38,800 nt of DNA from Victivallales bacterium (GCA_041666985.1 JBAYFV010000002.1:1-38800); one strand, 5' to 3'. Positions 5,667 to 19,292 are shown, counted from the stretch's first letter. A program made the numbers and translations. Notes: generated from the letters alone by a model not told the origin.

Positions 5667-6865
5667 TTTTTGCGATGTTCAAGAATAAAATAACATTGAA
5701 ATCTTTCCTGAGGCTGACCGTTTTATCAGTCCTGTTTTTATTCGGGCTTTACTTTATCCCCCATAACTGGTGTGCCAGGGAAGCGGTTCGGATATTCCAT
5801 AATAAAGGCGATATCCAGAACAGAATGGCGGCGCAGGCTGAAATCCTTGTTTCCAATGAGATCGGAAGGGAGAACTTCAAGACCGGATCGGATCTGTTTA
5901 ACGGCGAGTGGCTCTTCGGAACTTATATGATGTCAGGAATGGGGTTCGGGCAGATGGCGGTCTTGTGTCCGGACAGAAAAGAGGAATACTGTTTTGCAAT
6001 GGAGAAATGCATCCGCCAGATACTGTCTCCCGCCGTAAGGGAGTTTGACAAGCAGAGCTGGCAGAGTGATCCGGTAGATTCCCTGAATTCCGACCATGAC
6101 CATGCGGCTTACCTCGGATATTTCAATTTGCTGTTAAGCCTTCACCGCTTACTGAAGGGCGAATCGGAATACAGTGAGCTGAATGACAGGATAACAGTAG
6201 CGCTGGCAAGGAGATTGGACAAATCTCCGGTTCTGCTGCTTCAGACTTATCCGGGAGAATATTATCCTGTTGACAATTGTGCCGCTATTGCTTCAATCGG
6301 CTTATATGATAAGGCGACAGGGAAAGACCATTCGGAACTGCTGGAAAGATGTGTTTTCCGGATGAAGAATGATTATACGGATAAGAAAACAGGCCTGCTT
6401 TATCAGTGCATTGACGGAAGCAATGGAGAGCCTGCAGATTTACCGCGCGGTTCCGGAACATGTCTCGGATTATATTTTATTTCGTTCATGGATGCGGAAT
6501 TTTCAAAATCCTTGTACCTTTCCGTGAAACGCGAACTTCGCGGAGGCGTTTTGGGTTTCGGGGGAATAAAGGAATATCCGTCTTCATGTAAGGGGGAGCG
6601 TGGTGACATAGATTCCGGCCCTGTAATTTTCGGGTACGGGTTGTCGGCCACCGGTTTTGCTATTGCCGGGACAAGAATTCATGGCGACTCTGAAATGTTC
6701 AGGAACTTATACGCCACCGCATATCTTTGCGGCGCGCCGCACGATGCGGATGGGAAACGCAATTTTGTCACAGGCGGACATATCGGAAACTCCATCATGT
6801 TTGCCATGATGACAGCCCTGTCAAAGGATGAATTTGCAAAATTCTGCGAGAGGAGCGGGAAATGA
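5663..6865 (+). CDS. N-terminally membrane-anchored 400-aa protein of unknown function (helical-repeat/toroid-like impression)
   Basis: GTG 5663 overlaps the upstream stop (GTGA); alternative ATG 5675. One N-terminal TM (LRLTVLSVLFLFGLYFI) precedes a soluble domain with no motif I can name confidently. The stop overlaps the next start (ATGA). Confidence 0.65.
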   Translation: MIFAMFKNKITLKSFLRLTVLSVLFLFGLYFIPHNWCAREAVRIFHNKGDIQNRMAAQAEILVSNEIGRENFKTGSDLFNGEWLFGTYMMSGMGFGQMAVLCPDRKEEYCFAMEKCIRQILSPAVREFDKQSWQSDPVDSLNSDHDHAAYLGYFNLLLSLHRLLKGESEYSELNDRITVALARRLDKSPVLLLQTYPGEYYPVDNCAAIASIGLYDKATGKDHSELLERCVFRMKNDYTDKKTGLLYQCIDGSNGEPADLPRGSGTCLGLYFISFMDAEFSKSLYLSVKRELRGGVLGFGGIKEYPSSCKGERGDIDSGPVIFGYGLSATGFAIAGTRIHGDSEMFRNLYATAYLCGAPHDADGKRNFVTGGHIGNSIMFAMMTALSKDEFAKFCERSGK

Positions 6866-7158
6866 ATCTTAAGCTGCCATTAAAAAATAAAAACAAAAGG
6901 GATGCAATACATGTGGTCGTCATTATCGCATTATATTTCATCATTTTCAATTATGTTTCTCAAAAGGATATTGTCTCCACCTTGCTGACGGCTGGCAATC
7001 AGGCTTCGACATTTGATCTGATACTTTGTCTGTTCTTTATTGTTTTGCGTTTTTTTACACTGGTTTTACTGCCGGGAATACTTCTGGCTATGGTGGGTTC
7101 GCTTGTTATGGAATATATTGTTGCCAAAACTAAAGCACATGAAAAATTGCAGGATTGA
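6862..7158 (+). CDS. Small 2-TM membrane protein
   Basis: 98-aa ORF, ATGA-coupled to 5663-6865, with two clear hydrophobic spans. A+T-rich (38% G+C in 6901-7000 by hand count). Confidence 0.55.
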   Translation: MNLKLPLKNKNKRDAIHVVVIIALYFIIFNYVSQKDIVSTLLTAGNQASTFDLILCLFFIVLRFFTLVLLPGILLAMVGSLVMEYIVAKTKAHEKLQD

Positions 7159-7162
7159 GCGT

Positions 7163-7327
7163 ATGGATAATATAAAGAGAAAGGCTGCAGCATTAAGGAT
7201 TCTGGAAATCCTGAGGAAGAATGCAGGAAATGGCGTTGATTCCAAAACGGCAGACAGGATTGCTAATGAAGCAAAACACAATTCAAGGAAATCTGGAAGA
7301 TCTGCAAGGATAGTGTTTGACAAATGA
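7163..7327 (+). CDS. Possible small basic protein (54 aa)
   Basis: Internal ATG of the 7040-7327 ORF, preceded by AGGA with 8-nt spacing. The product MDNIKRKAAALRILEILRK... is K/R-rich. No homology recognised. Confidence 0.3.
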   Translation: MDNIKRKAAALRILEILRKNAGNGVDSKTADRIANEAKHNSRKSGRSARIVFDK

Positions 7328-7345
7328 ACTTTCCTGTCGCATAAG
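7317..7345 (+). promoter_or_regulatory. Sigma70-like promoter candidate for the 7421-9622 cassette
   Basis: TTGACA (7317-7322), 17-nt spacer, CATAAG (7340-7345), lying 76 nt upstream of ATG 7421, which has an AAGGGA SD. Confidence 0.4.
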
Positions 7346-7420
7346 AAAAATAAGAAGGTGTATACTTGAAAAAGCAATTCATTCGGGTTAATCTAATAAT
7401 TCAAATTTAAAGGGAATTAT

Positions 7421-8164
7421 ATGAACTGGATTGACTTTAATTTTTCTTTCAGGCAGCAATATGATAGAGGATACCGCTATCTGGACAGATTCGGAGAATT
7501 TCTTGTTGAAGCGGAGACAAATCATGGTTTTATGCCTAACGATATAAAACCTATAGGCGGTAATCTGCAATTACCTGAAGAATGTATTGATGTCCAGATT
7601 GATTCAGCTTCGCTTAACGTTTCACAGGAAAATCCAAAACTGGAGATACTTCTGGATAAAACCAAAATATTGACAGATTTAGTTTTAAAGTATTTCGAGC
7701 CTGTTAATATTGAAATGAATGTTGTTAACCTGAAATCGTATTGGCCTATCCACTCAATAGATGAGCTTGCAAAGACGCTCAAAGTTTCAGAAATGTTTTT
7801 CAAGAAAGAGGAAAAGCCTGACTTTGATGTTCTTGCCGACGCGATTGGAATGATTCCTGTTTACAGGAATGACAGTTTTGCTTTCAAGTCTGGCAGTAAG
7901 GATCTTGTTGTGAATTTAAATACTTTTACCTTCACATCCACCCAGAAAAAGAACTTTAATGCAGTGATCAACTCAACCGAACGGGAACAGAAACGGATTA
8001 GCCGTATAAATGCAAGAACCGCCAGATTTGTTGAGCCTCCACCTTATGGCTTTATGCTTGAAATTGTTCTCAGGGAAGAAAAGCCGCCGGAAAGTGGTTT
8101 TGACTCATTATTTGAAAACGCCATGAAAAAACTCGGAATATTAAAGGAACTTTATAAATTATGA
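7421..8164 (+). CDS. Hypothetical 247-aa protein, first gene of the A+T-rich cassette (faint resemblance to the TIGR04255 family, unverified)
   Basis: SD AAGGGA 7 nt upstream. 39% G+C in 7421-7520 by hand count. No catalytic motif recognised. The stop overlaps the next start (ATGA). Confidence 0.7.
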   Translation: MNWIDFNFSFRQQYDRGYRYLDRFGEFLVEAETNHGFMPNDIKPIGGNLQLPEECIDVQIDSASLNVSQENPKLEILLDKTKILTDLVLKYFEPVNIEMNVVNLKSYWPIHSIDELAKTLKVSEMFFKKEEKPDFDVLADAIGMIPVYRNDSFAFKSGSKDLVVNLNTFTFTSTQKKNFNAVINSTEREQKRISRINARTARFVEPPPYGFMLEIVLREEKPPESGFDSLFENAMKKLGILKELYKL

Positions 8165-8619
8165 ATCTTACTATAGATATGGCGATGGACAGCGAAAAAA
8201 GCACTTATGCTTCTTATGAGACGGATTGCGCTAAACCATTAAATGAAGTGCCTATTCGGCACTCAGTTTCATCCGATAAGAGAAGAACAGGTTTTTTTAA
8301 CAAAAAAGTAAAGAAAAGACTTAATGGATTTCTCCTGAAAATTGAGGGAGATAAAGCAATTGTTGTTATTCAAGATGCAGACAATCATTATGAATATGCC
8401 ATTCCCATAAAAATTCTTGAGTCTGCGGGAATAAGTCATAGAAATCAGCCATTCGAGATGGATTATGTCGTGATAGTCACTGATGCTGGAATAATAACAG
8501 GGCAGGAGTTCAGACCTCTTGCTAGTAGGGAACATATGACACGTGAAGCAATAAGCCTGTCGTCCGAAGAAGTTAAATGGAGAAATCTTCTTTTAAAAGA
8601 GGAAAATGATAAAACTTGA
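8161..8619 (+). CDS. Hypothetical 152-aa protein, second gene of the cassette
   Basis: ATGA-coupled to the upstream gene and overlaps the downstream gene by 14 nt. No recognisable motif. Confidence 0.6.
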   Translation: MNLTIDMAMDSEKSTYASYETDCAKPLNEVPIRHSVSSDKRRTGFFNKKVKKRLNGFLLKIEGDKAIVVIQDADNHYEYAIPIKILESAGISHRNQPFEMDYVVIVTDAGIITGQEFRPLASREHMTREAISLSSEEVKWRNLLLKEENDKT

Positions 8620-9622
8620 CTTCTATGAATCAGGAAAAGGCGAAACAATTATCATCACGTTTCCTGGTGGTGGTATTGGTGTCGTTGACGCTCATCCTTC
8701 TGAAAAAGTCGACAGATTGCATATAATTGAACTTGTTAAAGATAAAAAAATACATTTTCTCTGTCTCACCCATCCTCACTTAGACCATGCAAAAGATCTC
8801 CTTGAGGTTGTCAGAATAAGGCAGGACTATGAATTCTGGCATACCGTTCCATCGCTAAGAAAATTTTTCTTTGTCTGCACCGAAAGAGAGAAATATCCTT
8901 CCCCTGTTGATGCTCTTACTGAAAAACTATTTAGAGATAAAGTCAAGGTATTGACAGAACTCTTTTGGCGTGTGAAAGACTGCAAGATCGTATGCCGTTC
9001 TCTATTGAACAACCAAGTTGCAACGGTTATCGATCAGGTTGAAATATACTGTTTAAGTCCAAGCGAGAGAATTAAAAACAAAATAGAAGATGTTTATGAA
9101 GATATTGTCCAAGGTAAAAATCATGAAGAGCCTGAAGAGAACAGTTTGTCGGCTGTTTTAGCTTTGAAATACGGTGATACAATAATTATTCTTGGAGGAG
9201 ATGCCCTTAAAAAGAACTGGAATGACGCTTATGAAAAAGCTCGCAAAATAAATTTAGGAAAGGCCTTGATTATAAAAGTTCCGCACCATGGAGCATCTAA
9301 CTCTTTAAATGCTAAATCCAAAGAAAATCATCGCAGTTATCTCGAGTTCTGTAAAAATAACAGGGGAACTAAGGCTGTATTGTTTGCCGGAGACAGTAGA
9401 CATCCGGATGAAGCTGTTTTCGCTAAGCTTAAGGGCAAAGCGGTTCTTCATTGCACTGCAAATGGCTTGAAAACACCAGTATATGACCCATTGGATTTAA
9501 AAATACCTGGCGCAAAATGTTTGACTCCATCGAAAATATGTAATCCGGTTATCAGTTTCACTTGTGATGACAAAGGGAATATTGTTAATACGATGGGACA
9601 CGACTGCAGTGTGTGTAATTGA
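8606..9622 (+). CDS. MBL-fold metallo-hydrolase, ComEC-type, with Cys-rich C-terminus
   Basis: HxHxDH motif in LCLTHPHLDHAKD. ComEC-like NSLSAVLALKYGDTIIILGGDA and KVPHHGASNS. C-terminal cysteines (HC..., C...C, FTC, CSVCN). 33% G+C in 8701-8800 by hand count. Confidence 0.85.
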   Translation: MIKLDFYESGKGETIIITFPGGGIGVVDAHPSEKVDRLHIIELVKDKKIHFLCLTHPHLDHAKDLLEVVRIRQDYEFWHTVPSLRKFFFVCTEREKYPSPVDALTEKLFRDKVKVLTELFWRVKDCKIVCRSLLNNQVATVIDQVEIYCLSPSERIKNKIEDVYEDIVQGKNHEEPEENSLSAVLALKYGDTIIILGGDALKKNWNDAYEKARKINLGKALIIKVPHHGASNSLNAKSKENHRSYLEFCKNNRGTKAVLFAGDSRHPDEAVFAKLKGKAVLHCTANGLKTPVYDPLDLKIPGAKCLTPSKICNPVISFTCDDKGNIVNTMGHDCSVCN

Positions 9623-9629
9623 GTTTAAT

Positions 9630-12158
9630 ATGATTCTTCCCGTCGAGAAAATCCTGCCGCAACTGAAAGCTTCTTTGGTTAAGGCTAATTCTGTCATCCT
9701 CAAAGCTCCGCCCGGGGCTGGGAAAACAACGGTTGTTCCGGTTGCACTTCTCGATGAACCGTGGCTTGACGGGAAGAGGATAATCATGCTTGAACCGCGC
9801 CGTCTTGCAGCCCGTTCAGCAGCTTACAGGATGGCCGACAATCTCGGGGAGTCGGTCGGGAAGACTGTCGGTTACAGAACGCGTACCGACAGCAGGATTT
9901 CGCGTGACACCAGGATCGAAGTTGTGACGGAGGGGATATTCACCCGGCAGATACTCGGTGATTCCGAACTGAAAAATGTGGCGCTTGTCATTTTTGACGA
10001 ATTTCACGAGCGCAGCATTCATACCGATCTCGGCCTTGCTCTTGCACTTGATGTCCAGACTGTCCTGCGGGATGATCTTAAGATTCTCATAATGTCGGCG
10101 ACCCTCGATCCCGAAAAGATATCTGTTCTCTTTGACAAGCCGGGACTGGTTTCCTGCGAAGGGCGAATGTTTGATGTCAACACCGGATATATGACTAAAT
10201 CCTCCGGGGAAAGACTGGAGGATTTAGTAACAAGGACTGTGAAAAAGGCTCTTGAATACGAGGCGGGGAGCGTCCTCTGTTTTCTCCCCGGTGTCGGTGA
10301 AGTCCGCAGGGTCGAGGAGAAAATACGATCTGAGTTGAAGCTTCCGGACAATATTATGATCCGTCCCCTTTACGGTGATTTGGATAAGAAGGAACAGGAT
10401 GAGGCCATTCAGCCAGCGCCTTCCGGGAAACGTAAAATAGTGCTTGCCACTTCCATTGCCGAAAGCAGTATTACAATTGACGGCGTAACTGTCGTGATTG
10501 ATTCCGGGCTTTCGAGGAAATCCGTTTTTGATTCCCGGACGGGAATGTCGCATCTTGAAACTGTCAGGGTGAGCCGGGCTTCCGCCGATCAGAGGCGCGG
10601 ACGCGCAGGAAGAACAGGTCCGGGAGTCTGTTACAGGCTCTGGGGCGAAAACGAGAATTCACTGATGCCGGAATACGACATTCCTGAAATCCTGGAATCG
10701 GATCTTGCGAATCTCGCACTGATTCTTGCCGAATGGGGTGTCGCCGACACTTCGGCTTTGAAGTGGCTCAATCCTCCTCCGTCTGCGAAATTCGCACAGT
10801 CAGTCGAGCTTCTGACTGAGCTCGGAGCGGTTGATGAAAAAGGAAAAATCACGGTGCACGGCAGGAAAATGCTCGCCGCAGGAACTCATCCGCGTCTCGC
10901 GAACATGATCATCCGCAGTTCCGGAATCGGGCTGGGGAGCCTCGCCTGTGACATAGCGGCGATCCTTGAGGAAAGAGATTTGATCAAGTTTACGACGAGA
11001 AACAGGAATTCAGATTTACGACTGAGATTGGATTTGTTAAGACACGGGCAAGATGCCTGTGCTGCATTAAATAGAATTGACGATTCCGTCAGGTGGCGTG
11101 TAAAGAACTTTTCAGAGGAATTCAGGAAAAGGCTTGGAATTGAATTTCGTGAATGCGGTTCGGAAATGGCGGGAGTCGTTCTCGGTTTCGCATATCCCGA
11201 CAGAATCGCCAAACGGCGCGAAGGGCAGGACTCAATATATCTTCTTTCCTGCGGAAGGGCTGCGAAGTTCGCAAACATAGAACCTCTTTCAAAGGAGGAA
11301 TTTCTGACAGTTGCCGAACTTGATGACAAGGAGAAGGATGCGAAGATCCTTCTTGCCGCGCCTGTTGCAAGAAGTGATCTTGAAGAATATTTCGGCGGCA
11401 ACATCAGGATTGTTGAAACTGTGGAGTGGAATGACAGGGCAGGTGCGGTGGATGCCCTCGGCAGACGTGTCTTCGGCTCAATAATTCTCGAAGAATATCC
11501 GCTTAGAAATCCGGACAGGCGTAAAATATACGGAGCGGTTTTGAACGGAATCAGGATGAGAGGGCTTTCAGTTCTGCCGTGGACCGATGAAACTGAAAAC
11601 CTGAGGGGGAGAATCGTGTTCGCCGCAGGAACTGACAGGAAAAACGAGTGGCCCGATCTTTCCGACGATGTGTTTCTGGAAAATGCCGGCGACTGGCTTT
11701 CCCCGTTCCTGGGCGGCGTGAGAAGAGTCGAGGATTTCAGGAAGATAAATCTGCATGAGGCGTTGAACGGGTTGCTTGATTGGAAACACAGGGAACTTCT
11801 TGATAAGCTTGCGCCATCACACTTCAAGGTCGCCAGCGGTTCCATGGTGCGGCTGAATTACAGGGAAGGGGACCTGCCCGTTTTAGCGGTGAGGGTCCAG
11901 GAGCTTTTCGGAACGAAAACCCATCCCTGTGCCGGCGGCGGAAAAGTCCCTGTCCTTGTTAAAATCCTCTCGCCGTCAATGCGTCCGGTTCAGACCACTT
12001 CCGATCTCCCGGGTTTCTGGTCGAGTTCGTATCAGCTCGTGAAAAAAGATCTCAAAGGCCGTTATCCGAAACATTTCTGGCCCGAGAATCCCATGGAAGT
12101 TTCCGCGACAAGGGGGCTGAAGCCGAAGGCGGGCGTTGCCCGCAACACAAAAGACTAA
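9630..12158 (+). CDS. hrpB: ATP-dependent DEAH-box RNA helicase HrpB
   Basis: N-terminus MILPVEKILPQL as in HrpB. Walker A APPGAGKTT, DEFHERS, SATLD, QRRGRAGRTGPG, and a long HrpB-type C-terminal region. ATG 9630 preferred to the longest ORF start 9564. 52% G+C in 9641-9740. Confidence 0.9.
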   Translation: MILPVEKILPQLKASLVKANSVILKAPPGAGKTTVVPVALLDEPWLDGKRIIMLEPRRLAARSAAYRMADNLGESVGKTVGYRTRTDSRISRDTRIEVVTEGIFTRQILGDSELKNVALVIFDEFHERSIHTDLGLALALDVQTVLRDDLKILIMSATLDPEKISVLFDKPGLVSCEGRMFDVNTGYMTKSSGERLEDLVTRTVKKALEYEAGSVLCFLPGVGEVRRVEEKIRSELKLPDNIMIRPLYGDLDKKEQDEAIQPAPSGKRKIVLATSIAESSITIDGVTVVIDSGLSRKSVFDSRTGMSHLETVRVSRASADQRRGRAGRTGPGVCYRLWGENENSLMPEYDIPEILESDLANLALILAEWGVADTSALKWLNPPPSAKFAQSVELLTELGAVDEKGKITVHGRKMLAAGTHPRLANMIIRSSGIGLGSLACDIAAILEERDLIKFTTRNRNSDLRLRLDLLRHGQDACAALNRIDDSVRWRVKNFSEEFRKRLGIEFRECGSEMAGVVLGFAYPDRIAKRREGQDSIYLLSCGRAAKFANIEPLSKEEFLTVAELDDKEKDAKILLAAPVARSDLEEYFGGNIRIVETVEWNDRAGAVDALGRRVFGSIILEEYPLRNPDRRKIYGAVLNGIRMRGLSVLPWTDETENLRGRIVFAAGTDRKNEWPDLSDDVFLENAGDWLSPFLGGVRRVEDFRKINLHEALNGLLDWKHRELLDKLAPSHFKVASGSMVRLNYREGDLPVLAVRVQELFGTKTHPCAGGGKVPVLVKILSPSMRPVQTTSDLPGFWSSSYQLVKKDLKGRYPKHFWPENPMEVSATRGLKPKAGVARNTKD

Positions 12159-12380
12159 CCAGCGCGCCAAGGTAGGAATCCGTCGTCTCCGCAATCTGGC
12201 TCGCCAAAAGTCAAATTTTCACCCTTATAGGGTATAAAAGGAGATAGAACTGAAAATCCTTCGATAAACTCAGGACAGGCCGAACATCGAATGGACATAG
12301 AGGTGCAGGAGGAGATGTGGATTTACGGTTATGGTCGGAGATGGGTTTGCCAAGAGGATTTGATAATGTAGAGTATTGAC

Positions 12381-12566
12381 ATGATTGCGAAATGCGTGAA
12401 AATCGGGAAGATCAAAAGGCCGTCCCAGAAGGATGAGTTGAAATACTGGCTTGGAAAGACGCCCGAAGAACGCATAGGGGCAGTGGAAATTCTCAGAAAG
12501 CAGTATCATGGAAATACACAGGGACTTCAAAGAGTTTATAGGGTTGTTCAACTATCACGGAGTTGA
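12381..12566 (+). CDS. Small 61-aa protein of the type that precedes nucleotidyltransferase-fold genes
   Basis: The pattern ...TPEERIGAVEILRKQY...GLQRVYRVVQLS is typical of short partner proteins found upstream of the GGYA...DLD nucleotidyltransferase family (from memory, unverified). Confidence 0.45.
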   Translation: MIAKCVKIGKIKRPSQKDELKYWLGKTPEERIGAVEILRKQYHGNTQGLQRVYRVVQLSRS

Positions 12567-12768
12567 ATATGTTATTGTGGGCGGTTATGCCCTTGCCTTT
12601 CTTGGAGCCCCGAGGTATACCGGCGATTTAGATTTATTCGTGAAGGCTGATCGCGGGAATGCATCGAAAATCCTTTCCGCCCTTAAAAGTTTCGGATTTG
12701 GCTCGTTGAAATTAAGCGAGTCCGACTTCTCCGAACCCGGCAAAGTGATACAGCGAGGCCTTGGGTAA
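12508..12768 (+). pseudogene. Truncated nucleotidyltransferase-fold gene (GG.A....G..R.T.DLD family)
   Basis: FKEFIGLFNYHGVEYVIVGGYALAFLGAPRYTGDLDLFV matches the N-terminal half of roughly 140-170-aa family members. The ORF stops at TAA 12766 right after VIQ.G, where homologues continue. The same frame stays open for 53 more codons to 12930. Confidence 0.5.
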
Positions 12769-12792
12769 GAAGGTCATGTAGTCAGAATTCAG

Positions 12793-12820
12793 CGGCCTAC
12801 TGCGGTGGCCGCAGTTTTAT
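12793..12820 (+). terminator. Hairpin plus T-run, terminator candidate
   Basis: GCGGCC (12793-12798) / GGCCGC (12807-12812), or alternatively CTGCGG / CCGCAG (12800-12805 / 12809-12814), followed by TTTTAT. Confidence 0.4.
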
Positions 12821-13031
12821 CAATAAAAAACTTAACTAGTTTGCGATCTCCGAGCGCAAAAGACGAAGAGGCCGATTGCGCCAAGGATGTCGCAAGCTAC
12901 TCAAAGCAAGTTTCAGAGGAGTCAGAATAAATCTGGATTTGAATTCAAATCCCGTTCTAGATCCTGACTTCTGAATTCCTGCAAAAAGCAAGTTTTACAA
13001 TCAGCTCAAATAAAATACGGATTTTAAAAAT

Positions 13032-16563: not shown

Positions 16564-17748
16564 TTATTTCTTTTCGAGGAGCCATTTCCTGAAGAAGTCG
16601 CCGGCCTCGGCAGGGTCGAACTGCTTGTCCTTGATGAGGCATGGACGCCAGACGCACGACATGCACCACGCGCACCAGCTTATATTCCCGTCGTCGAAGG
16701 TCTTTTTCAATTCCTTCTGATAGTTTTCCGTGACCTCCTTGAGATAGGACGATGTTTTCGGATTGGACATCAGGGTTTCCAGAAGCCTGCGGTTGAGGTC
16801 GCTGAAGTAAAGCTTGTTTCCGCTCTGTCTTTTCACCTCGTCCATCTGCGGTTTGACTTGCGGATAAAGCTCCAATATCTTTTTCTGAACATCGCTGAGG
16901 GTTACGAACTGTTCGATGTCGTATCCGACTTCGGTTGCAAAAACGAACTGTTTTTTTGCAGCCGAAGAGACAATCTTCAGGTTTTTCATCGTGGCAAGCC
17001 GGGATTCAGACGGATACGGATGCACTGAATATCCCACATTTTCCCTGTTCAAAGGATAGCTTCCGGCAAATGAGATGTCGCGGGCCCAGCTGAGACCCGA
17101 CACGAGGCAGATGGCATCGGGATCATTTCTCCGGACAATGTCAATTACCACCCCCATGTTGTTCCCCCACTCAATCCAGTCCTTTTCGGATATCTTCATG
17201 AATTCCTTGGTGACCGGTTCGCTGAACAGTTCATACATTGCAACCACCTTGTTGTCCTTGAAGTGGTTTGAGACTTCATTCCAGAAACTGTGAAGCTCCT
17301 CAATTGTTGTCCTGCCCGACTTGTCGGACGGATTGTCGGTGCTCGGCCACCCGGTAGCCTGATAGGCGATGACAACATACATGTGATGTTGTTCAGCCCA
17401 TGCAACCGCCTGGTCAAGAGACTTCAAGGTGTTGTTTTTCCCCTGTATTTTCCAAGAGAAGGGAAGTACCGGCAGTCTGACTGTGTTTGCGCCCCACTCA
17501 TGCACCTTTGCAAAGAGCCTTTCATTGAAGGGGACACATTCATTCTGGAAGCTTGCGTCTCCTGCGTTCATGCCAACCGGATCCCGGGTGGACACGCCTT
17601 TGAATACAAACGGTTTTTTCGATTCATCCAGTGCGGAATTTTTTTCTATGTGGAATTTCTGCGGAAACACGGTCGCCTGTGCGAAGACGTTTTTGTTGAA
17701 TGCCAGGATGGCGAAGAAAAGGAGAATGACAAACAGGGATCTTTTCAT
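16564..17748 (-). CDS. Secreted glycoside hydrolase, GH5 (clan GH-A)-like
   Basis: Signal peptide MKRSLFVILLFFAILAFNKNVFA. GANTVRLPV, acid/base region VAMYELFSEP (Ser where GH5 normally has Asn), HPYP, and nucleophile region FVFATEVGY. About 100-aa insert before the C-terminal W.AW strand. Confidence 0.7.
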   Translation of the reverse strand: MKRSLFVILLFFAILAFNKNVFAQATVFPQKFHIEKNSALDESKKPFVFKGVSTRDPVGMNAGDASFQNECVPFNERLFAKVHEWGANTVRLPVLPFSWKIQGKNNTLKSLDQAVAWAEQHHMYVVIAYQATGWPSTDNPSDKSGRTTIEELHSFWNEVSNHFKDNKVVAMYELFSEPVTKEFMKISEKDWIEWGNNMGVVIDIVRRNDPDAICLVSGLSWARDISFAGSYPLNRENVGYSVHPYPSESRLATMKNLKIVSSAAKKQFVFATEVGYDIEQFVTLSDVQKKILELYPQVKPQMDEVKRQSGNKLYFSDLNRRLLETLMSNPKTSSYLKEVTENYQKELKKTFDDGNISWCAWCMSCVWRPCLIKDKQFDPAEAGDFFRKWLLEKK

Positions 17749-17822
17749 TTTTCCTCCATTAAAATTGTTTGGGCAAATATATTCCGTGATTCCGCAATGC
17801 GCAATTGCTTTCGTAACTTAAA

Positions 17823-17869
17823 TATTTTTGTTTTTGTAAGGGCAAAGCGCCTGAAAGAAAACAAAAATA
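17823..17869 (-). terminator. A/T-rich hairpin downstream of hicA
   Basis: TATTTTTGTTTT (17823-17834) / AAAACAAAAATA (17858-17869) form a 12-bp stem with a 23-nt loop. It lies between the hicA stop and the GH5 start. Confidence 0.3.
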
Positions 17870-17903
17870 CAAATGAAAAAGGATTCGGTAATTCAATTGC
17901 GGC

Positions 17904-18155
17904 TTAAATGTCAAAGAGAGATGAAGCTAGCTGATCCTTAGAAATCTGAAGATGTTGGGAGATATCGTTCAATATGTTGTTCAAAGTTCCGATGCGTATC
18001 GGATTATGGTCAGGAATCGTGATGTTATGTGGGGATGGCGGAATATCTCGGGTTAACCTGATATGGCTCCCTGTCTGTCTTGTGACCACATATCCGAGGG
18101 ACTTTAAAAGTTTGCAAAGCTCTCTGCCGGAAACATCACGAGGAATCTTAGGCAT
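17904..18155 (-). CDS. hicA: HicA-family mRNA interferase toxin
   Basis: MPKIPRDVSGRELCKLLKSLGYVVTRQTGSHIRLTR...ITIPDHNPIRIGTLNNIL matches the YcfA/HicA pattern (G.EL...L...G....RQ.GSH..L). ATG 18155 overlaps the hicB stop by 8 nt. Confidence 0.8.
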   Translation of the reverse strand: MPKIPRDVSGRELCKLLKSLGYVVTRQTGSHIRLTRDIPPSPHNITIPDHNPIRIGTLNNILNDISQHLQISKDQLASSLFDI

Positions 18156-18357
18156 ATTGCAAGACTTCCTCCTTAACAAAATGGAGGCGGATTATTTTTG
18201 GGACATTGGAGTCATAATGGCATTTCATTGCATCAAGGATGTTTGCCTTGAGCTCTGGCACGGTATCAGCCTCTGTGAAGATTGACTGTCCCAGAGCCTC
18301 CGCCGTGTACCCTCCATCTGGAGAGTCTTCAACCATAAATATTATTTCGTTCATCAT
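18148..18357 (-). CDS. hicB: HicB-like antitoxin (short, N-terminal domain only)
   Basis: IIFMVEDSPDGGYTAEALGQSIFTEADTVPELKANILDAMKCH fits the HicB/UPF0150 N-domain pattern. Located immediately upstream of and overlapping hicA. Confidence 0.6.
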   Translation of the reverse strand: MMNEIIFMVEDSPDGGYTAEALGQSIFTEADTVPELKANILDAMKCHYDSNVPKIIRLHFVKEEVLQYA

Positions 18358-18491
18358 TATGTCATCTCTTTTGTTTGGTTGGAGAATATAACGAATGAAA
18401 TCATAAAATCAAACTGTCAGGGAGAATCCAATTAATAGAGGTAATTTCAAAAGTAGTCAGAGTTCAGTTTAATTTCTATGTTTATGAACCC

Positions 18492-19292
18492 CTAAAAACT
18501 CATTTTCTTCAGCCACCCAGCGCACAGGTCAACCCAAGTGGCGACATGCGGATCTGCGCCACCCATGCCCATTCCGTGGGGGCCGTCCGGGTATACGTGA
18601 AGTTCGAACGGAACTTTGTGCGAACTTAATGCTTCGGCGAAAAGGAGGCTGTTTTCCAGTGGCACACAAGCGTCATTTGCAGTATGCCATAAAAAAACAG
18701 GAGGCACGTCTTTGTGCACGTTAAGCTCCAGGGACATTTTTTTCATGAGTTCATCCGAAGGATTTTCCCCGAGCAGGTTTTTAAAGGAGGCGATATGCCC
18801 GAATCTCCCCGAACTTATCACCGGATAACAGAGAATTCCCGCGTCAGGACGTGCCGAGACTTTGTTTTTTCTGTCAGGCGCCAATGATTCCGCCAAGCCG
18901 TAATGGACGCAGGCGCTTGCGGCGAGGTGTCCGCCCGCTGAAAAACCGAGGATGGCGATTTTGTCGGGTTTGACTTTCCATTTTTCCGCATTGCGTCTGA
19001 CTGCCCTCACAGCCTCGGCAGCATCAACAAGAGGGGCGGGATGCCTGTTTGGCGCAACACGGTATTCGAGCATGAATGAATGGAATCCGGCCTCGTTGAA
19101 ACGGGCGCAGACATCCCTTCCCTCATACGATGTCATTTTTCCCGTGTAACCGCCGCCCGGCAATACAATTATTGCACCTGACGGGATTGCGGTTTTTAAA
19201 AGGAAGCTTTCCATATAGGGCTGGAATCCGTCCCCGTTTTCAGAGAGCGGGGCGGTTCCAGGCCATAACATTATTTTTTCTTGGGCATTCAT
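18492..19292 (-). CDS. Alpha/beta-hydrolase esterase (Aes / BD-FAE-like)
   Basis: Oxyanion-region LPGGGY, nucleophile elbow GFSAGGHLA, and late Asp/His (ANDACVP, DGPHGMG). Confidence 0.8.
   Translation of the reverse strand: MNAQEKIMLWPGTAPLSENGDGFQPYMESFLLKTAIPSGAIIVLPGGGYTGKMTSYEGRDVCARFNEAGFHSFMLEYRVAPNRHPAPLVDAAEAVRAVRRNAEKWKVKPDKIAILGFSAGGHLAASACVHYGLAESLAPDRKNKVSARPDAGILCYPVISSGRFGHIASFKNLLGENPSDELMKKMSLELNVHKDVPPVFLWHTANDACVPLENSLLFAEALSSHKVPFELHVYPDGPHGMGMGGADPHVATWVDLCAGWLKKMSF

Follow-up and report, generated by a model that had tools for sequence, protein, structure and literature searches.

A co-conserved, mobile three-gene cassette encoding a putative ComEC-like nuclease and two small partner proteins

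The stretch of Victivallales bacterium DNA analysed here (GCA_041666985.1, JBAYFV010000002.1:1-38800; 38,800 nucleotides (nt), hereafter the window) carries three overlapping genes, A, B and C, directly upstream of the helicase gene hrpB, and our comparison shows that these genes occur together elsewhere as a unit. Homologues of A and B stand immediately upstream of C in all 12 independent related loci, on flanks that differ from locus to locus. By its sequence, C is a soluble hydrolase of the ComEC-type metallo-beta-lactamase (MBL) fold, accompanied by two partners that match no family model. We lean, with modest confidence, towards reading the trio as a self-contained mobile module with a ComEC-like nuclease as its output, serving defence of the abortive-infection type through inhibition and release by A and B.

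A three-gene cassette upstream of hrpB

Genes A (7421-8164, 247 amino acids (aa)), B (8161-8619, 152 aa) and C (8606-9622, 338 aa, stop codon at 9620-9622) all lie on the plus strand and overlap by 4 nt (ATGA) at the A/B junction and by 14 nt at the B/C junction, exactly as claimed in an earlier reading of this DNA that was made from the sequence alone (hereafter the sequence-only reading). That reading had also placed the end of the cassette 7 nt before hrpB, in agreement with the in-frame ATG of hrpB at 9630. The downstream gene (9630-12158, plus strand, G+C 0.517) is indeed a DEAH-box helicase of the HrpB type, with Pfam matches to HrpB_C (1.6e-48), DEAD and Helicase_C; we treat it as a housekeeping flank outside the module.

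The interval 7317-9629 has a G+C content of 37.2%, compared with a mean of 46.9% (s.d. 3.4) in equal-sized windows across the 38.8 kb, and is the lowest of all windows of that size. Third codon positions follow the same pattern: their G+C content (GC3) is 0.29-0.37 in the three genes of the cassette and 0.51-0.61 in the eight flanking genes compared. The abruptly A+T-rich cassette of the sequence-only reading is therefore real in its low G+C content, but the tract starts at about 6862 and not at 7317.

Co-conservation and genomic contexts of the trio

The close relatives of the trio, which we call clade I, comprise 12 independent loci (L001-L003, L005-L008, L085, L095, L097, L099 and L102) plus the window; the loci inspected were those whose C homologue shares at least 35% identity with C. 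A word-indexed protein search had returned more than 187 relatives of C, most of them full length at 38-47% identity and with the named examples in Verrucomicrobiota. For A it gave just two relatives, and for B no relative at all. The latter counts were misleading, as A and B homologues proved to be present upstream of C. Across the trio loci, hidden Markov models detect A with E values of 1e-25 to 1e-120 and B with E values of 1e-14 to 1e-80; the order is A-B-C throughout, and the A/B overlap is 4 nt wherever the genes have been called. One locus (L007, 1602-2372) has gene A split into two open reading frames (ORFs) by a frameshift, either a pseudogene or an assembly error.

The changing flanks place the trio outside any conserved housekeeping, competence or envelope operon, and hrpB stands beside it at no other clade-I locus. 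Restriction-modification, mobile genetic element, phage or HNH/RlaP genes adjoin the trio at about 6 of the 13 clade-I loci, a qualitative count. A complete MmeI-type restriction-modification gene pair lies directly upstream in L002 (2590-6173), and a 201-aa MmeI_N fragment lies upstream in the unrelated genome of L005 (8064-8666). The trio of L003 is embedded in an element with relaxase, TrwB-like ATPase, ArdC, primase and HNH genes, and that of L085, an IMG/VR viral contig, directly follows the genes for a GpA-type large terminase, a DNA methylase and a DUF3987 protein. Genes for RlaP-family nucleotidyltransferases adjoin the trio at L095 (7720-11089) and at L102 (7653-11933), where the end of C shares 35 nt with the downstream RlaP gene and an HNH gene is located upstream. 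Such an arrangement points to RlaP-A-B-C-RlaP as a larger unit that travels together in some Verrucomicrobia. Ordinary housekeeping genes flank the trio at L006, L097, L099 and in the window. No protease is found among the flanking genes at the 12 loci.

The foreign composition described for the window recurs in its relatives. Over all clades, including the more distant ones described below, the trio is poorer in G+C than its surroundings at 20 of 21 loci, with differences ranging from 1.5 to 18.6 points, which is the signature of a horizontally moving islet.

Protein C

C is basic, with an isoelectric point (pI) of 8.3. Its HPHLDH, GGDA and VPHHG motifs, recognised in the sequence-only reading, are invariant across 40 homologues, in which residues H56, H58, D60, H61, D199, H227, H228, D263 and H266 never vary; with its metal residues conserved in this way, the catalytic MBL set is intact. 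The Cys-rich tail noted earlier is likewise a family feature. C283 and C312 are invariant in the same alignment, C249, C334 and C337 nearly so, and C53 is invariant as well; the tail probably binds a structural metal, to judge from this conservation pattern.

Profile comparison agrees with the motifs in assigning C to the ComEC type. With hhalign, C aligns to the MBL domains of ComEC proteins from the fetched loci at an E value of 2.5e-25 over 226 columns. Among the library models, Pfam yields only Lactamase_B-type matches at the generic threshold (23 bits), and NCBIfam yields ComEC_Rec2 (TIGR00361) at 5e-6 (24.9 bits against a cut-off of 190) and 6A-MBL (NF058524) at 1.8e-4 (20.7 bits against a cut-off of 220). 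The strongest library matches come from PADLOC, namely RTasMBL of DRT (1.3e-11 over residues 4-237), PDC-M48B (5.5e-10) and LmuA (1.4e-8), yet they are weak (32-42 bits) and indicate similarity at the superfamily level. The best profile matches of C are the MBL components of the DRT, Lamassu, PDC-M48 and Avs1 systems. Given the weakness of the PADLOC matches and a Cys cluster that is specific to the clade, we regard C as a separate MBL family. Its sole solved relative by sequence is PDB 9ic4, a ‘Competence protein’ (2.6e-4).

C reaches the threshold of no RNase Z, BN or J model in Pfam or NCBIfam; some of its homologues carry the label ‘ribonuclease BN’ from JGI automatic annotation. The sequence-only reading had called C a plausible nuclease, and its relationship to the MBL effectors of known defence systems supports this view and makes DNase activity plausible. 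We propose that C would act as a Zn-dependent DNase effector.

Proteins A and B

The two partners are more acidic than C, with pI values of 5.3 for A and 6.1 for B. An exhaustive profile search of 1.84 billion proteins recovers 126 cluster representatives of A, a family that is real but small and sporadically distributed. Its members share the motif GYRYLDxCGEF, and residues D22, G25, G158, Y18, Y20, P52, P94, R195 and E219 are invariant or nearly so. Cys24, near-invariant in the family, is replaced by Phe in the protein from the window.

An AlphaFold2 model of A built from a 45-sequence alignment has a predicted local distance difference test score (pLDDT) of 90.8 and a predicted template modelling (TM) score of 0.87, and supersedes an unusable model from three sequences (pLDDT 49). 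Its elements run in the order beta-alpha-beta4-alpha, followed by a second, modified copy; the first half has the exact order of the TATA-binding protein (TBP) and the second half a variant of it, although Foldseek retrieves TBP only at a low TM score. A is predicted from this model to form a duplicated, pseudo-dimeric TBP-like saddle. Searched against the PDB, the model reaches TM scores of 0.26-0.33 to RepDE, TBP, AdoMetDC and guanidino kinases, a likeness at the level of the fold only, and Foldseek finds no close solved relative of A there. The acidic character of A argues against a DNA-binding saddle in the style of TBP. The only moderately close structural match is an anonymous 202-aa viral protein in BFVD (A0A515MGR4; TM 0.57/0.67, E 1.6e-7).

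In an alignment of 15 homologues, the N-terminal region of B, about 45 residues long, is variable, and the about 100 residues that follow form a conserved C-terminal domain. The C-terminal domain contains the motifs RRLxGF, NQPFEMD and FRPLA; G56, V68 and F98 are invariant, and the N-terminal half is probably flexible.

A and B have no match in Pfam, NCBIfam or PADLOC, which holds also for their remote relatives and for the partner proteins of the other clades, and profile searches of both against PDB sequences return no match. The faint resemblance of A to TIGR04255 that the sequence-only reading had mentioned is not supported, as A has no NCBIfam match at E<=1, none of 45 A-family members matches that model, and no other NCBIfam match recurs among them. 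No protease domain is recognisable in A or B, and neither has a conserved set of Ser, His and Cys residues; for lack of such a constellation, and with Cys24 of A being Phe here, both proteins are very unlikely to be proteases. We propose that A is a sensor or regulator, forming the portable constant part of the module, and that B is an adaptor or inhibitor.

Relation to known systems

The role of ComEC-like MBL nucleases as death effectors of Hachiman, Avs and canu was demonstrated only recently. Experiments have established that the MBLs of these three systems are ComEC-like, Zn-dependent nucleases of double-stranded DNA; they are synthesised as zymogens, which a neighbouring protease of the trypsin, caspase or subtilisin type unlocks, and the same nuclease-protease pairing has been reported in Lamassu and DRT systems (PMC12799240, PMC12642450). 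Our trio resembles these protease-activated modules (HamM of Hachiman; the MBLs of Avs1, Avs2, Avs4, Lamassu and DRT; CanC of canu) in having a stand-alone MBL of about 330-370 aa beside a regulator, in the ComEC-like fold of that MBL, in its mobile or defence contexts and in its PADLOC counterparts (RTasMBL, LmuA, PDC-M48B and Avs1a). It differs from them in its two small non-protease partners, where the known modules usually have a protease fused to the sensor, and in the clade-specific conserved Cys cluster in the tail of C. Two active-site-gating insertions with conserved cleavage residues are a feature of HamM, the Avs MBLs and CanC. To our knowledge, a dedicated protease unlocks the characterised ComEC-like MBL nucleases of defence systems in every case.

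C shares the fold and the metal motifs HxHxDH, GDA and HHG with ComEC/Rec2. Unlike ComEC, a membrane protein of 800-900 aa with DUF4131 and a multi-pass Competence domain (PF03772), C is soluble, has 338 residues, of which about 100 at the C terminus are additional to the ComEC MBL domain, and lies far below the cut-off of the ComEC model; it is therefore not a ComEC protein. The 6A-MBL anti-phage system of Pseudomonas aeruginosa (NF058524) also has an MBL-fold effector, to which the match of C is weak. Its ubiquitin-related partner genes, described in a 2026 review citing Van Den Berg et al., set it apart from a trio whose only partners are A and B and whose C protein falls far short of the model cut-off. 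Membership in PDC-M48 was considered and rejected: C has partial PDC-M48B matches, but A and B give no match to PDC-M48A at E<=1.

The trio corresponds to no named system in PADLOC 2.0 (PADLOC-DB in its 2023 release), NCBIfam 2026 or Pfam, in line with the sequence-only reading, and no description of it was found in papers on DefensePredictor, component modularity networks and MBL-protease modules. The effector class and its general logic were known already, whereas none of the libraries and papers searched describes the partner proteins, the fold family of A or such an effector without a protease.

A wider class of trios

Many of the more distant MBL loci from scans of genomes and viral sequences have the same layout, in which overlapping genes encode proteins of about 240 aa, about 200 aa and an MBL of about 365 aa. 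Clade II comprises 19 loci in many phyla, including a Thermoplasmata metagenome-assembled genome (MAG) and four IMG/VR contigs; clade III is formed by L009, L011 and L013, and clade IV by L012, L017 and L040. The C proteins align nearly end to end by hhalign. Clades III/IV form a bridge, with E values of 1e-35 to clade I and 2e-38 to clade II, and the direct comparison of I with II gives 1e-24. Similarity among the partners is lower. Clade-I B proteins are related to those of clade III with a probability of 68% and to those of clade IV with one of 54%; with B of clade II they align in the same register, at insignificant scores. A of clade I is marginally similar to A of clade III (E 0.002), and profile comparison detects no sequence-level homology between it and A of clades II and IV. 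The trios of clades I and II thus share gene order, sizes, overlaps, an almost full-length homologous C and mobile contexts; they differ in A and in the Cys cluster of C, which is absent from clade II.

Clade-II trios in cultured bacteria are annotated merely as hypothetical protein, hypothetical protein and ‘MBL fold metallo-hydrolase’. One lies on a plasmid of Adhaeribacter swui, beside a recombinase gene and with a DEAD/DEAH helicase as a neighbour, and another on the conjugative plasmid pAR24_C of Pantoea agglomerans, between two tyrosine recombinase genes. A third is found in Escherichia coli RM10466 (NZ_CP028381.1, 1400513-1402913; L114, 10662-13062; WP_000143147.1, WP_162543785.1 and WP_001198055.1). 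In RM10466, the sole E. coli genome inspected, it sits between the Q antiterminator and holin genes of an e14-like lambdoid prophage, on the strand opposite to the late operon. Of 5,426 complete E. coli genomes, 15 contain a match to the clade-II MBL segment, and in 13 the match covers 80% or more of the Q-trio-lysis region of RM10466. In related prophages the same slot between Q and holin holds a KAP NTPase, a DNA methyltransferase or other cargo, and these differing contents mark it as a variable cargo hotspot. The C proteins of the viral clade-II contigs have no match in the phage collection.

Somewhat more tentatively, at a little less than an even chance, we regard the trio of the window as a branch of a large, as yet unnamed class of immune modules with three genes each, spread over bacteria, a Thermoplasmata MAG, plasmids and prophages, in which A and B would control a ComEC-like DNase without a protease, A being portable and the trios described in the next section providing an alternative output. 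An E. coli prophage and a conjugative plasmid of Pantoea both carry members of the class, so standard phage panels can be used without the uncultured host of the window. If this reading is true, the class would represent a second way of licensing a ComEC-like MBL effector, with two small non-protease partners, and a function would be assigned to the new protein fold family of A.

Trios headed by A-like proteins

A sister family of A, here called A', accounts for 19 of 125 A-family representatives, is related to A with an hhalign probability of 98.5% and has the motif GYRFLDKCGE. Members of this family head a different conserved trio, A'-X-Y (L106, 1192-2942; L110, 3612-5919; L116, 2199-4392), in which X has about 220 aa and Y, which is not an MBL, about 280 aa. 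A therefore behaves as a portable front end with alternative back ends. Such part-swapping is typical of defence systems, where sensors behave in this way.

X shows no homology to B. The N terminus of Y is PIN-like, but a weak match to PIN (E 0.012) comes only from a truncated copy and stays unconfirmed, the full-length copy being without a match in Pfam or the PDB. At L116, a phage-type integrase gene adjoins A'-X-Y and gene X appears disrupted.

Interpretation and alternatives

In the mechanism that we propose, translational coupling would supply A, B and C in fixed proportion, and a complex of the three is probable. Within it, the acidic A, with its predicted TBP-like double saddle, and B, with its flexible N-terminal tail and small C-terminal domain, would keep C, the basic nuclease, inactive. 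Once A, B or both had sensed an infection cue, C would be released or activated and would degrade DNA. We infer complex formation, DNase activity, trigger-dependent release and the defence phenotype of the trio.

The sequence-only reading had proposed a horizontally acquired module of the defence or abortive-infection type. The computational checks that it suggested all turned out in favour of that proposal: the trio is co-conserved and mobile, belongs to no conserved housekeeping operon, is foreign in composition, has a nuclease-type effector and fits no named system. Its defence function remains an inference. Several further points weigh against our reading. The activation logic is speculative, since the known defence MBLs depend on a protease and the trio has no recognisable one. 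The MBL fold also occurs in RNases J and Z and in hydrolases that are not nucleases, which bears on whether the substrate of C is DNA or RNA. About half of the clade-I loci, including the window, L006, L097 and L099, have no directly adjacent defence gene, and C of clade I has no match in the PLSDB plasmid and INPHARED phage collections. Finally, with homology between A of clades I and II undetectable and that of B marginal, the evidence from E. coli and the plasmids transfers to clade I through C and the architecture only.

Among the alternatives, the strongest is a tripartite toxin-antitoxin or addiction module, to which we give a low but appreciable probability: C would be a DNase toxin and B, A or both a labile antitoxin or regulator, the trio would stabilise the elements that carry it, and phage defence would be incidental. 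A compact, translationally coupled cassette with the enzyme last, acidic partners beside a basic nuclease and the variable, probably flexible N-terminal half of B would all suit such a module, as would the presence of trios on plasmids, a conjugative element and prophages and the proximity of other genes of this kind (RelB/ParE in L097, HicA in the window). However, no DNA-binding antitoxin fold or family can be recognised in A or B, and with products of 250, 150 and 340 aa the three genes exceed the usual size of such modules. Moreover, the nearest relatives of C among characterised MBLs function in defence, and the slot between Q and holin in prophages is a classic position for cargo and not for maintenance genes. 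The toxin-antitoxin reading fits almost all of the data, and it and defence are not mutually exclusive.

Less probable still is an offensive or DNA-processing role for phages or other mobile elements, such as degrading the DNA of the host or of competitors, scavenging nucleotides or processing incoming DNA as ComEC does. C is equally close to the ComEC MBL and to the MBLs of clade-II trios, and trios occur right after a terminase gene in a viral contig and inside an E. coli prophage; yet most clade-I copies are chromosomal islets without other phage genes, C has no membrane channel domain, and the orientation of the E. coli trio against the late operon is typical of cargo expressed in the lysogen. 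Least likely, and in our judgement very improbable, is a housekeeping operon of RNA or DNA metabolism in which C would be an RNase J/Z-like ribonuclease working with HrpB. Such an operon would account for the 7-nt gap, in which no terminator was found and hrpB has no obvious Shine-Dalgarno sequence, for the presence of a DEAD/DEAH helicase beside the trio of Adhaeribacter and of a DeaD gene at 2 kb from that of L102, and for the ‘ribonuclease BN’ labels. Against it, hrpB has the native G+C content and the cassette lies 10-14 points lower, no other clade-I locus pairs the two, the neighbouring helicases elsewhere are on the opposite strand and of different families, C scores below every RNase Z, BN and J threshold, and the distribution of the A family is sporadic, at 126 representatives among 1.84 billion proteins.

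Borders and neighbouring features

At the left edge of the A+T-rich tract, G+C content falls sharply at 6800-6900, where orf98 (6862-7158, plus strand; G+C 0.36, GC3 0.37) begins. Its 98-aa product is small and hydrophobic (grand average of hydropathy +0.83) and probably a membrane protein. It is followed by orf54 (7163-7327, plus strand), which encodes a strongly basic 54-aa protein (pI 11) with no match in Pfam, PADLOC or NCBIfam. These two genes (6862-7327) have the low G+C content of the cassette and extend the foreign tract about 450 nt further to the left. They were rejected as additional parts of the system, as tblastn finds no homologue of either beside any other trio.

The promoter that the sequence-only reading had ascribed to the cassette, TTGACA-17-CATAAG (7317-7345, plus strand), is present as a sequence, without evidence of function. 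It is not statistically supportable: a consensus scan does not list the site at 7317, and the 11 promoter-like sites found in the cassette region compare with 7.7 (s.d. 2.6) expected after shuffling, that is, the level of chance. Nor do flanking repeats mark island borders, as the short direct or inverted repeats there occur at chance level only. A terminator scan finds none between C and hrpB, and hrpB may be read through from the cassette. The window contains no tRNA, and the interval 6000-13000 contains no Rfam element.

DEAD/DEAH-family helicase genes lie near the trio at three unrelated loci (L112, 9162-11285; L102, 13019-15322; the window, 9630-12158). This proximity is probably a coincidence, as the helicases belong to different families and two of them are on the opposite strand.

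Toxin-antitoxin genes occur near some trios. RelB/ParE genes are found near that of L097, and in the window a HicA-toxin gene with an overlapping gene for a 69-aa partner (17904-18357, minus strand) lies about 8 kb downstream of the cassette. The HicA gene is located in a second A+T-rich patch (G+C 0.41 at 17501-18500), and the pair looks like another small mobile toxin-antitoxin islet. Directly 3′ of hrpB, two small overlapping ORFs of 61 and 86 aa (12381-12768) have no precomputed Pfam match; the 86-aa product resembles a truncated nucleotidyltransferase by eye, and the two ORFs may be the remnant of a toxin-antitoxin pair.

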